Virus record (IMG/VR): IMGVR_UViG_3300015155_000017
Direction: 5' to 3' (one strand)
DNA: 61,304 nt
Source of the DNA: a virus
Lineage: Duplodnaviria; Heunggongvirae; Uroviricota; Caudoviricetes
Shown here: positions 1,083 to 4,248 of the stretch, in pieces
Position numbering within the stretch: the first letter of the stretch is position 1
Layout of the letters: the number at the start of each line of letters is the position of its first letter
Made by a program: the position numbers and the translations under genes
Notes under the pieces: generated by a model
Database searches by the model: none
What the model was told of the DNA's origin: nothing
Seen by the model: the letters and a program-made list of their open reading frames with translations, nothing else

Positions 1083-1980
1083 GCACTGGAAAAACATTAC
1101 TATTTATAAACTTTCTCGTGAGGCGGATCTGACCGACTTAGAAGATAAAAAGAAAATGATCCTTTTCACGCCATGCGGTAGTCAGGATATGGCCAAGTTC
1201 GGTTTTGTATCTCCATTTGGTGATAATTCCGAAGTTATCGCTATGCATGGAAATGGTTTTATCCTTGTTGAAGCAAAGCGCGAAACAAAAATTCTTCCCC
1301 CGCCGGTTATCCAGCGAGCTATTCAAGAAAAAATTGAAAAACTTGAGCAAGAACAAGCGCGTAAACTGAAGAAAACAGAGAAGGACTCCCTGAAAGACGA
1401 AGTTCTGCATTCTCTTCTGCCACGGGCTTTTTCAAAGTTTTCTGTTATCCAGGCGATCTACGACGGTTCAACTAAACGTATCTATATCAATGCCAGCGCG
1501 CGGCAGGCAGAGGATATGCTCGCGCTTATGCGTAAGTCTCTGGGTTCTCTTCCTGTTGTTCCCCTGAGTGTTGAAAATCCCATTGAATTAACGCTGACCG
1601 ACTGGGTACGTGATGGTAGTGCTCCACAGGGATTTCAAATGGGGGATGCGGCAGAACTTAAGGCAGTGCTTGAGGATGGCGGTATTGCCCGAGTGAAAAA
1701 GCAGGATTTGGGAAGCGATGAAATTTCCACACACCTGGAAGCTGGCAAGCTCGTTACTAAGTTGGCACTCGACTGGCAGAACCGCATTAAATTTACACTG
1801 GACCATAACTTCAGCCTTACCAGCGTCAAATTTGCGGATGAATTGCTTGAGCAGAACTCTGATATTGATAGTGAAGATGTTGCGCAGCGACTGGACGCAG
1901 ATTTCTTCCTGTTGACCAGTGAAATTTCGTGCCTGGTTGATGCTCTGGTAAATGCCCTTGGTGGAGAGGCTAAGCAGTGA
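1075..1980 (+). CDS. hrdC: RdgC-like recombination-associated protein (301 aa)
   Basis: N-terminus [13 protein letters not shown] matches the RdgC family; P1 hrdC position. Confidence 0.85.
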
Positions 1981-4241
1981 AAGAGCTGTGCTATGGATCT
2001 GTTTGCAGTGGAATTGAAGCCGCGAGTATTGCCTGGGAACCGTTGGGTATGCGTCCGGCGTGGTTTGCTGAAATCGAGCCTTTTCCATCTGCCGTTCTTG
2101 CGCACCGCTGGCCCCATGTCGCCAACCTTGGCGACATGACAAAACTTGCCAAAAAAGTCCTGGCTGGGGAAATCGAATCCCCTGATGTGCTCGTCGGGGG
2201 TACGCCTTGTCAGGCATTCAGTATCGCGGGCTTACGTGGTGGGCTTGATGATGAACGCGGCGCGCTAACTTTGAAGTATGTGGAGCTTGCAAATGCAATT
2301 GACGACAAACGGTCTGAGTCCTTCCTCAAACCGACAGTTATCGTCTGGGAAAATGTCCCAGGAGTCCTGTCATCGGCAGATAACGCCTTCGGATGTTTCC
2401 TTGCCGGATTGGCTGGAGAAGATGCGCCATTTGAACCAGGTGATCGACCTGAATCAGGAAAAAGTAACGCGTTCTGGCGGTGGGATGGCAAAACCGGTTG
2501 CCATGCTCCAAAGTGGCCGCAGTGTGGTTGTATTTATGGACCGCAGCGAAAGGTGGCCTGGAGAATCCTTGATGCCCAATACTTCGGAGTGGCACAACGA
2601 CGCCGACGCGTGTTTGTTGTCGCAAGTGCTCGAACAGACCTCGATCCCGCAACGGTACTTTTTGAGTTCGAAGGCGTGCGTCGGAATATTGCGCCGAGCC
2701 GAAAAAAGAAGGAAATCGCTTCCGCCATTATTGCAAATGGCGCTGCAATCAGTGGCGAAAGCCTAAATCCATGCCTACACGCTGACATGCCACCCGGTAT
2801 GAAATCGACGAAAGCCGTAAACGCTTTCAGGATGGCAGCATTTGGGGAATATATTGACGATGAAACCGCATCGACAGTAAAGGCAAGAGATTTTAAAGAT
2901 GCCACTGACCTTGCCGTTTTTAGCAGCACAGGAGCAGGTTTTTGGTCAGAAGGGCATGGTACATTGCGGGCACGTGAGCAAGAAAGCCATGAGCATCTTG
3001 TTACATTGGCTTTTCCTGAGCGTATGAGCGGTACACAACATGCTGCAACTAAGAATACTTCACCATCTCTAATGGCTAAAAATCCAACAGCTGTTTGCTA
3101 TGAAGTAAGAAACGCAGAAGTAGCTGTCCGCCGTCTTACCCCTGTCGAATGTGAAAGGCTGCAAGGTTTTCCTGATGGGCATACGTTGATCCCGACGGAA
3201 AAGCGTAAAAAAGTTAATTCAGATGAACTGGCATATCTTCGCAATCACTATCCAGATTTAAGCGAAGAAGAGGCCGCGATGCTTGCAGCTGACGGACCGC
3301 GTTACAAAGCGATCGGCAATAGTATGGCAATACCAGTAATGCGCTGGATTGGCGATCGGATTACTAAGGCCGTATGTCGGCAGAAAGAAGGAAGTGAAAC
3401 AAAAGAGCGAAAAGTTAAACCAGCGGCAGAATTCGAACGGTCCATATTCAAATGGGCTGGTGGAAAATTTGGTGTTCTGGAACAAATCTTTCGCTATTTG
3501 CCAGAAGGGAAGCGCCTGATCGAACCTTTTGTCGGTGGCGGAGCTGTCTTCACGAATGCCGGATACCAGGAAAATCTGCTAAATGATGTGAATGCTGACC
3601 TGATTAACTTTTACAAGACTCTGCAACGCGAGGCGCATTCACTTATCACTCTGGCACATCGTTTCTTCCAGGACTACAACACGCAGGAAGGATACCTGGC
3701 AGTACGGAATGCGTTTAACAAACAAGTCTATGATGATTTACATCGCGCAGCGGCGTTTTTGTTCCTGAACCGACATTGTTTTAACGGATTGACGCGTTAC
3801 AACCAAGCCGGTGAGTTCAATGTCGGTTATGGGAAGTATAAAACTCCGTATTTCCCATTGCAGGAGATGGAAGCCTTCCTTGGTGCGGAAGGGCGTTCTG
3901 AGTTTGTATGTGGTGATTTTGCTGCGGTGATTGAAGCTGCCGGAGAAGGAGATGTCATCTTTTGCGATCCGCCGTATGAACCGCTCCCAAATACAGAGGG
4001 ATTCACGAACTATTCCGGTCATGACTTTAAGTTTGAAGAGCAAAAACGCCTGGCGTCTCTGTTGACGGATGCTCATCGCCGAGGTGCAAAGGTTCTCATT
4101 ACTAACAGTGGCGCGCCAAACATCAGAGAACTTTATCAGGACAGTGGCTTCAGAGTGGAACCTCTTTTTGCCAGACGTTCTGTGTCTTGTAAGGGGGACA
4201 CTCGAGGTGTTGCTCATGACGTTATGGCAATATTGCTCTAA
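1977..4241 (+). CDS. dmt: bifunctional DNA methyltransferase: N-terminal C5-cytosine domain, C-terminal Dam-like N6-adenine domain
   Basis: PCQ motif ([12 protein letters not shown]) and ENV motif (VIVWENVPG) in the N half; [14 protein letters not shown] and DPPY motifs in the C half; GTG start overlaps hrdC stop. Confidence 0.9.
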
Positions 4242-4248
4242 TAAATTT
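4232..4248 (+). promoter_or_regulatory. C1 operator overlapping the dmt stop codon
   Basis: ATTGCTCTAATAAATTT exact consensus. Confidence 0.6.

Follow-up and report, generated by a model that had tools for sequence, protein, structure and literature searches.

What does a phage do with a methyltransferase that carries two different catalytic cores in one chain, and are both of them active? The question is raised by a gene near one end of the DNA analysed here, a 61,304-nt stretch of a Caudoviricetes virus (IMG/VR record IMGVR_UViG_3300015155_000017; hereafter the window). Judged by full-length identity and by position in the order Odmt-uhr-hrdC-dmt-Oban, both of which place its product in the orthologue group of P1 Dmt, the gene is the dmt of a P1-like phage-plasmid. 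It is 99.0% identical to phage P1 dmt at the DNA level, and the protein is colinear, without gaps, with P1 Dmt (formerly Dam, AAQ14041), which has the same 754 aa (747 of them identical), the same operon and the same flanking C1 operators. The most notable of the seven substitutions is at residue 74, a Trp in P1 and a Gly in the window. Very probably, Dmt is a single polypeptide made of an N-terminal C5-cytosine methyltransferase (aa 1-470), a charged linker and a C-terminal Dam-family GATC N6-adenine methyltransferase (aa ~487-754), in which the Dam half serves pac and the C5 half is most likely active, with a specificity presumably set by an exchangeable region (aa ~241-384). Both the two-domain organization of Dmt and its connection with methylated GATCs in pac and cre had been described in the P1 annotation and in reviews, and are restated rather than discovered here; what is new are the observations on relatives, i.e. 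the swapping of recognition cassettes, an intein at the catalytic Cys, the G74W change unique to laboratory P1 and the purifying selection on both halves. The coordinates of all features are collected in the table.

Table. Features of the dmt locus and of the GATC-containing pac and cre regions (window coordinates).
Feature	Coordinates	Strand	Basis
C1 repressor operator Odmt (ATTGCTCTAATAAATAT)	710..726	+	5' of the uhr-hrdC-dmt operon; P1 counterpart at 65145-65161 ('monovalent C1-controlled operator Odmt')
Promoter Pdmt	726..755	+	Homology to P1 annotation (65161-65190, 'sigma 70 promoter Pdmt')
uhr, opening the operon	798..1082	+	P1 annotation 65233-65517; ATG at 798
hrdC (RdgC family)	1075..1980	+	P1 annotation; its TGA shares nucleotides with the GTG of dmt
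dmt CDS including stop, 754 aa	1977..4241	+	ORF; identity to P1 dmt
C5-cytosine methyltransferase catalytic core, motifs I-VIII (aa 1-240)	1977..2696	+	Motifs, Pfam, AlphaFold, Foldseek
Variable region, presumed target-recognition domain, P1 type (aa 241-384)	2697..3128	+	Replaced wholesale among alleles
C5 methyltransferase motifs IX (aa 385-399) and X (GNSMAIPV, aa 447-454)	3129..3386	+	Motif alignment
Lys/Glu-rich linker (aa 471-486)	3387..3434	+	Between the Pfam/NCBIfam envelopes of both enzymes
Dam-family (D12 class) N6-adenine methyltransferase domain (aa 487-754)	3435..4238	+	Pfam/NCBIfam; E. coli Dam alignment
C1 operator Oban-a (ATTGCTCTAATAAATTT)	4232..4248	+	Overlaps the dmt stop; part of the next operon (ban); P1 annotation 68667-68683
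pac site core, 4 + 3 TGATCA/G hexamers inside pacA; substrate of the Dam half	31009..31165	.	GATC positions; methylation role from PMC12707154
Four GATCs of the cre regulatory region, beside loxP and at the P3cre -35 element	35123..35195	.	P1 'Dam methylation site 1-3 within the regulatory region of cre'

The dmt frame starts with a GTG and runs as a single unbroken ORF (ORF listing of the window) to a TAA stop at 4239-4241. The preliminary description had let the gene end at 4248, which is 7 nt too far, that position being the end of Oban-a. At the other end, 1977-1980 reads GTGA, the overlap of the hrdC stop with the dmt start, and a GGAGAGG is located 8-17 nt upstream; the overlap would couple translation of dmt to that of hrdC. 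As the last gene of the uhr-hrdC-dmt operon, dmt would be repressed by C1 at Odmt, so that Dmt would be made upon prophage induction or infection; both timing and regulation are here transferred from the P1 annotation. A simple consensus promoter scan missed Pdmt, and a search with a consensus of the P1 late-promoter box gave no match.

That both cores stand in one 754-aa chain, as first proposed from the sequence, agrees with the motifs located (PCQ, ENV and DPPY) and with four profiles above their cut-offs. For the C-terminal half these are the Pfam D12/Dam profile PF02086 (194.3 bits versus a cut-off of 22) and NCBIfam TIGR00571 (251.3 versus 114.85). This half aligns to residues 5-267 of E. 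coli Dam (2g1p) with an E-value of 3.7e-59 and to T4 Dam (1yfj) with an E-value of 1e-8, and shares with both the D12/alpha-class motif order, FxGxG and DPPY: the corresponding sequences are FVGGGA (aa 518-523) and DPPY (aa 664-667, nt 3966-3977), and these two motifs are kept in 115-116 of the 121 relatives. Unlike E. coli Dam, Dmt is fused to a second enzyme, falls below the cut-off of the E. coli Dam equivalog NF008152 (246.7 bits versus 441) and has Phe and Gly at Y119 and P134, two of the seven residues that contact GATC in the 2g1p structure of E. coli Dam; the other five (K9, N120, L122, R124 and Y138) are identical in the Dmt alignment. In the P1 dmt(del)MB allele, which is dam-null, the Dam half is lost from aa 608 and the C5 half is intact. 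GATC methylation has been reported for P1 Dmt (P1 GenBank annotation; PMC12707154; PMC10695390), and the Dam half of the window's protein would methylate GATC, including the seven sites of pac and those at the cre promoters.

These two regions had been singled out as dense in GATC, and dmt as the phage's own methylase for sites that gate packaging and recombinase expression. At pac the density is borne out: the pacA ORF (30815..32008, 397 aa) contains GATCs at 31009, 31016, 31028 and 31043, then at 31139, 31151 and 31162, plus one at 31190. A density of eight in 200 bp was attained by 12 of 2000 random placements, and no GATC cluster of the window other than pac is statistically exceptional. 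In the leader of cre (35522..36553), the four sites are indeed present, at 35123, 35176 (extra relative to P1), 35184 and 35192, but a cluster of three in 20 bp is expected about 0.8 times per 61-kb window by chance. What gives them significance is therefore their location at P3cre together with the P1 GenBank record, where three Dam sites are marked in the cre regulatory region, and not statistics. The idea of a phage-borne methylase for these sites fits the same record and the P1 literature, which ties Dam activity to pac cleavage. According to the review PMC12707154 (citing Sternberg & Coulby 1990), P1 requires GmATC at pac and cannot do without dmt in Dam- hosts; PMC7253447 agrees on both points, and dmt is dispensable in a dam+ host (CRISPRi 'NE', PMC10695390). 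The pac sites of the window, following what the literature has established for P1, would need methylation before cleavage by the pacase; with Dmt methylating pac, packaging would therefore be independent of host Dam. Both pac and cre concern the Dam half only.

The experimental basis of the methylated pac requirement in P1 (PMC12707154) and the uniqueness of the pac cluster argue against another account, possible but in our opinion rather doubtful, according to which both halves are chiefly anti-restriction devices giving blanket protection from GATC- and C-specific endonucleases, and the GATC mark is used only secondarily for regulation at pac and cre. Several features are nevertheless in line with it: the family of the C5 core is very large, is found in phages and prophages and varies strongly in its recognition regions, the Dam module is shuffled among P1-like elements as the recognition cassettes are, and phage orphan methyltransferases are listed as protective devices in the review PMC12707154. 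Protection and the roles at pac and cre are not mutually exclusive.

Returning to the two-enzyme reading, the N-terminal half scores 126 bits with the Pfam C5 methylase profile PF00145 (cut-off 22) and 117.3 with NCBIfam TIGR00675 (cut-off 100.65). Profile scores, motifs IV, VI, VIII, IX and X and a class I fold with the C5-type arrangement all place it in the C5 superfamily. Within the core, motif I reads CSGIEA (aa 10-15), PCQ is at aa 77-79 (nt 2205-2213), ENV at aa 125-127 (nt 2349-2357) and QRRRR at aa 207-211. The fold was predicted with AlphaFold: a run on aa 1-481 with 20 close relatives gave a pLDDT of 31.7 and was discarded, and the run used, with 114 diverse relatives, was confident for the core only, with a pLDDT above 90 there. 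The top 50 PDB hits of the predicted core in Foldseek were all C5 methyltransferases (probability 1.00). The monospecific bacterial enzymes M.HhaI and M.HaeIII, matched at that same probability with a target-normalised TM-score of 0.56-0.60, share motifs IV, VI, VIII, IX and X with the C5 half; they differ from it by an identity of only ~16%, by its CSGIEA motif I and by its ~144-aa variable region, which is unrelated to theirs and is modelled with low confidence.

The C5 half had also been called Dcm-like. This stands at the level of the superfamily, TIGR00675 being common to Dmt and E. coli Dcm (CCWGG), but not at that of the Dcm subfamily, whose profile NF007772 gave 21.9 versus a cut-off of 710. 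In BLASTP the match to K-12 Dcm was 32% over 77 aa and covered motifs IV-VI and IX only. With this score, a match limited to motifs and no linked vsr (the neighbours of dmt are hrdC and, from the P1 annotation, tRNA genes, and no vsr is nearby), orthology to E. coli Dcm was rejected.

Where the specificity of the C5 half may lie is suggested by the alleles of P7, SJ46 and other elements, in which everything between motifs VIII and IX has been replaced and the flanks are near-identical; by sequence comparison, this stretch is a cassette exchanged among P1-like elements. The region scanned alone had no match in PHROGs, and in the 114-relative AlphaFold run its pLDDT was 35-69, from which no fold or specificity was deduced. 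Its sub-segments aa ~278-318, ~310-345 and ~339-378 recur independently in other proteins, and a [STC][LVI]x[AC] motif, present in four copies in the window's Dmt, is enriched (395 observed versus 123 in shuffles). The multispecific C5 methyltransferases of the Bacillus phages SPR, phi3T and rho11s combine one catalytic core with a long variable region, as Dmt does. Dmt departs from them in that its segments did not come out as homologous repeats in profile-profile or pairwise tests: within the P1-type region, pairwise local alignments were not significant against shuffles, and when the profiles of the four presumed units were compared with hhalign, no probability exceeded 2.3%, bar an artefact from overlapping ends. 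An organization in tandem units therefore stays a speculation.

Is the C5 half active? The literature searched held no experimental report of cytosine methylation by Dmt, and the P1 GenBank record qualifies its annotation with 'perhaps'. A catalytically dead or relic half, persisting only as an appendage for DNA binding or folding in what would functionally be a single adenine methyltransferase, would account for this silence, for a motif I that is not the canonical FxGxG, for the toleration of G74W beside the catalytic Cys in laboratory P1 and for the natural frameshift alleles that part the two halves. We consider it unlikely in view of the conservation of the core. Motifs IV, VI, VIII, IX and X are kept in 105-121 of the 121 cluster representatives; P77, C78, Q79, E125, N126, V127, Q207, R209 and R211 are invariant among 114 relatives of 47-64% identity. 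The CSGIEA sequence is near-invariant throughout the subfamily and is found in 133 stand-alone, C5-only representatives, the catalytic residues being conserved family-wide. The dN/dS values, 0.08-0.19 in the C5 core versus 0.01-0.14 in the Dam half, that is around 0.1 and as low as in the latter, indicate that purifying selection acts on both halves, and the confinement of cassette turnover to the target-recognition region argues for selection on specificity and not for decay. The C5 half is thus most likely an active cytosine methyltransferase, which would probably shield replicating and packaged DNA from restriction systems having that cytosine in their sites.

Inteins favour conserved active sites, and about 26% of the plasmid alleles, including those of RCS47 and OP279344, carry one (Hint + LAGLIDADG) exactly at the catalytic Cys, between P77 and C78, which also speaks for an active C5 half. 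The window's Dmt is without it and reads GGTPCQAFS uninterrupted; nothing relevant to a dmt intein was found in the literature searched. Beside PCQ there is another variation: position 74 is Gly, the family consensus, in the window and Trp in both sequenced laboratory P1 strains, and no phenotype of G74W is reported in the literature searched. A tentative extension, in which we place limited confidence, sees in the cytosine half an anti-restriction enzyme that is active and modular and may be multispecific. Recognition cassettes, catalytic-Cys intein and Dam module would be traded independently among P1-like phage-plasmids, and the activity may have gone unnoticed through a crippling G74W in laboratory P1, wild alleles like that of the window being intact.

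What the locus still offers is thus the activity and the target of the cytosine half in the methyltransferase of a classic phage. With G74, no intein and a P1-type cassette, the window allele is a cleaner substrate than laboratory P1 for that question, and the series of P1, P7, SJ46 and 718-aa types provides ready-made specificity swaps. Since P1-like phage-plasmids often carry resistance genes in Enterobacteriaceae, the way in which they cross restriction barriers is of practical interest.

A last point concerns alleles in which the two halves are separated. The natural +1 frameshift allele P0001 codes for 473 aa and ends in the linker, the ON470615 record annotates two genes for dmt, dmt-A and dmt-B are annotated separately in PMC10695390, and an internal late promoter, 'LPdam2', is predicted in P7. 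That the window's two activities are likewise made as separate proteins, through a frameshift or an internal start, is nonetheless highly improbable, its frame being 754 uninterrupted codons, without frameshift and colinear with P1 Dmt, and the internal promoter a weak-looking prediction in another genome.

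The window represents a P1-like phage-plasmid. Across its first 25 kb, it matches hundreds of Escherichia and Salmonella plasmids classed as non-mobilizable, at 98-99%; the dmt stretch shows 99.0% identity to Escherichia phage P1. In the ORF listing, dmt is a single reading frame (1977..4241, + strand, 754 aa) with a GTG start; its translation contains no internal stop and is colinear with P1 Dmt, without gaps, 747 of 754 residues being identical. The span previously proposed, 1977-4248, has the right start but ends 7 nt past the stop codon, at the end of the C1 operator Oban-a.

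That one chain carries a C5-cytosine core and a Dam-like N6-adenine core, as the preliminary description had proposed, was confirmed by Pfam and NCBIfam matches and by the location of PCQ, ENV and DPPY (see table). The C5 cytosine methylase family PF00145 matches in two stretches, with 126 bits, and aa 493-726 match the D12 class N6-adenine methylase family PF02086, with 194 bits; TIGR00675 scores 117.3 (cut-off 100.65) and TIGR00571, ‘Dam family’, reaches 251.3 (cut-off 114.85). With 246.7, the equivalog model for E. coli Dam stays under its cut-off of 441. PHROG 116 covers both halves. The two-enzyme finding is correct but already known, a re-description of annotated P1 biology: the GenBank note of P1, like that of P7, which is identical in content, calls dmt a bifunctional DNA methyltransferase acting on N6 adenine in GATC and ‘perhaps’ on C5 cytosine. 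In the literature searched, no account was found of Dmt methylating cytosine or of the sequence targeted.

Features of dmt and its surroundings (aa, Dmt residues; nt, window positions)
Feature	Position	Location	Remark
CSGIEA	aa 10-15	C5 half	motif I
PCQ	aa 77-79	C5 half	motif IV
ENV	aa 125-127	C5 half	motif VI
QRRRR	aa 207-211	C5 half	motif VIII
15-residue motif	aa 385-399	C5 half	motif IX
GNSMAIPV	aa 447-454	C5 half	motif X
FVGGGA	aa 518-523	Dam half	
DPPY	aa 664-667	Dam half	
C1 operator Odmt	nt 710-726	upstream of dmt	arrangement exactly as P1
Pdmt		upstream of dmt	arrangement exactly as P1
uhr	nt 798-1082	upstream of dmt	arrangement exactly as P1
hrdC	nt 1075-1980	upstream of dmt	arrangement exactly as P1
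C1 operator Oban-a	nt 4232-4248	overlaps dmt stop	ATTGCTCTAATAAATTT; sequence and P1 annotation

The region between motifs VIII and IX (window 2697-3128), the presumed target-recognition domain, is replaced wholesale among P1-like elements, while the flanking DNA is 97-99% identical. This cassette is 142 aa long in the window and P1, 60 aa in P7 and 195 aa in SJ46, whose version includes the P7 unit and additional sequence (z = 24). Length classes of 718 and 822 aa also exist. Comparison of the window with P7, SJ46 and relatives' Dmt proteins (P0098-P0118) gives at least four to five cassette types, from 60 to ~236 aa. As judged from these sequences, the exchange suggests that cytosine target specificity has diversified. 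Parts of the P1-type cassette (aa ~278-318, ~310-345 and ~339-378) recur independently in other proteins, at varying distances from the core, and the motif [STC][LVI]x[AC], present four times in the window cassette, is three times as frequent in 146 variable regions as in shuffles. The segments and the repeated motif of the window cassette recall the tandem recognition units of multispecific C5 enzymes of Bacillus phages. Hypothetically, the P1-type cassette could be made of tandem recognition units; pairwise and profile-profile tests did not show its segments to be homologous repeats.

Several lines of evidence suggest that the cytosine half is alive. The N-terminal 481 residues match M.HhaI and M.HaeIII through motifs IV-VI, VIII, IX and X. 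For the C5 half, AlphaFold with 114 relatives (47-64% identity) gave a model with pLDDT above 90 at aa 1-235 and 385-470; the 50 best PDB matches of this model are C5 methyltransferases without exception (probability 1.00). The term ‘Dcm-like’ is right only at the superfamily level, because E. coli K-12 Dcm resembles the C5 half in shared motifs alone; for the Dcm subfamily it fails (21.9 against a model cut-off of 710). Among 121 sequences (the window protein and, from close relatives, 120 listed representatives of 90%-identity clusters), the motifs are near-invariant: one 11-residue motif is found in 119, VWENVPG in 117 and QRRRR in all. In the 114 more distant relatives, P77, C78, Q79, E125, N126, V127, Q207, R209 and R211 are invariant, and the unusual motif I residues S8, C10, S11, G12, I13 and E14 are conserved in at least 90% of them, so that CSGIEA is a family trait and not decay. 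Between six alleles, dN/dS (Nei-Gojobori) is 0.08-0.19 for the C5 core in informative pairs (up to 31 synonymous versus 11 non-synonymous differences) and 0.01-0.14 for the Dam half. A scan of 1.84 billion cluster representatives returned a very large set of stand-alone proteins with 50-70% identical C5 cores; since 133 of the top 150 are C5-only and only 12 have both halves, the C5-Dam fusion is a restricted invention on a widespread phage-type C5 enzyme.

Residue 74 sets laboratory P1 apart. Both sequenced laboratory strains have W74, reading WGTPCQ, versus G74 (GGTPCQ) in the window (codon at nt 2196-2198), in 119 of the 121 representatives and in at least 90% of distant relatives. The laboratory P1 lineage may carry a damaged C5 active-site region. 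In RCS47 (L004:732-1754) and OP279344, a 341-aa Hint plus LAGLIDADG intein separates P77 from the catalytic C78 of motif IV (...GGTP|CFTAG...VVHN|CQAFS); the homologous point in the window, which lacks it, lies between nt 2207 and 2208. Intein DNA is present in 133 PLSDB plasmids, against 503 with dmt, and occurs with cassettes of both the P1 and the P7 type. The literature searched yielded no mention of it. For work on what the cytosine half does and which sequence it targets, the window allele, with G74 and without intein, is good starting material.

E. coli Dam (PDB 2g1p) is matched over its residues 5-267 by the C-terminal 273 residues of Dmt (E 3.7e-59), which also align with DpnM and T4 Dam. 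The residues of E. coli Dam that we take to contact GATC are K9, Y119, N120, L122, R124, P134 and Y138. In the 2g1p alignment, K9, N120, L122, R124 and Y138 are identical in Dmt, Y119 being replaced by F and P134 by G. In the P1 dmt(del)MB strain (AF234173), which bears the classical dam-null allele, dmt lacks nt 1821-2139: the Dam half is gone from aa 608, DPPY included, the remainder is frameshifted and the C5 half is intact, an extent consistent with the C-terminal half being the GATC methylase. The D-P codons of DPPY form a GATC (window 3966-3969), so that dmt bears its own target at active-site codons, probably by coincidence. The commonest Dmt class (762 aa, P0003) is ~95% identical to the window protein in C5 core and cassette, but its linker differs and its Dam half is only 69% identical (versus window 3387-4238); the Dam module is thus shuffled too. 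A 473-aa allele (P0001, representing a cluster of 123 sequences) ends with ...CRQKEGK in the linker through a +1 frameshift (window 3380-3395), which splits the C5 half off from the Dam half. In some phage records and in a CRISPRi study (PMC10695390), dmt is given as two genes. The halves are thus separable.

GATC is not in overall excess in the window (254 versus 239 expected from base composition). The expected density at pac was found: the sole exceptional cluster, at 31009-31190 within the 397-aa pacA ORF, comprises four TGATCA/G hexamers, a ~90-bp spacer and three more, which is the canonical pac arrangement; only 12 of 2000 random placements gave eight GATCs in 200 bp. Upstream of cre (35522..36553), sites are present at 35123, 35176, 35184 and 35192. 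Three of them are the P1 record's ‘Dam methylation sites 1-3 within the regulatory region of cre’, two of these lying at the P3cre -35 element; the GATC at 35176-35179 is extra (window GTGATCAC, P1 GTGACCAC) and brings the number there to three within 20 bp. As ~0.8 such clusters are expected by chance per window, the density of the cre leader does not amount to an excess, and this cluster owes its weight to position and the literature. The view that the phage brings its own methylase for these sites is supported, for cre by the P1 record and for pac by a 2025 review (PMC12707154) and by PMC7253447, both stating that GmATC at pac is needed for P1 packaging, which makes dmt essential in Dam- hosts. 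In a wild-type host, dmt was non-essential by CRISPRi (PMC10695390).

The stop codon of hrdC and the start codon of dmt share the sequence GTGA, preceded by a Shine-Dalgarno sequence, GGAGAGG; this suggests translational coupling of the two genes. If the P1 annotation carries over, C1 would repress the dmt operon, which would be expressed on induction. About 180 nt 3' of dmt, a terminator-like hairpin (window 4425-4444), a GC-rich stem followed by a T run, falls in the region that the P1 annotation calls dicF-like.
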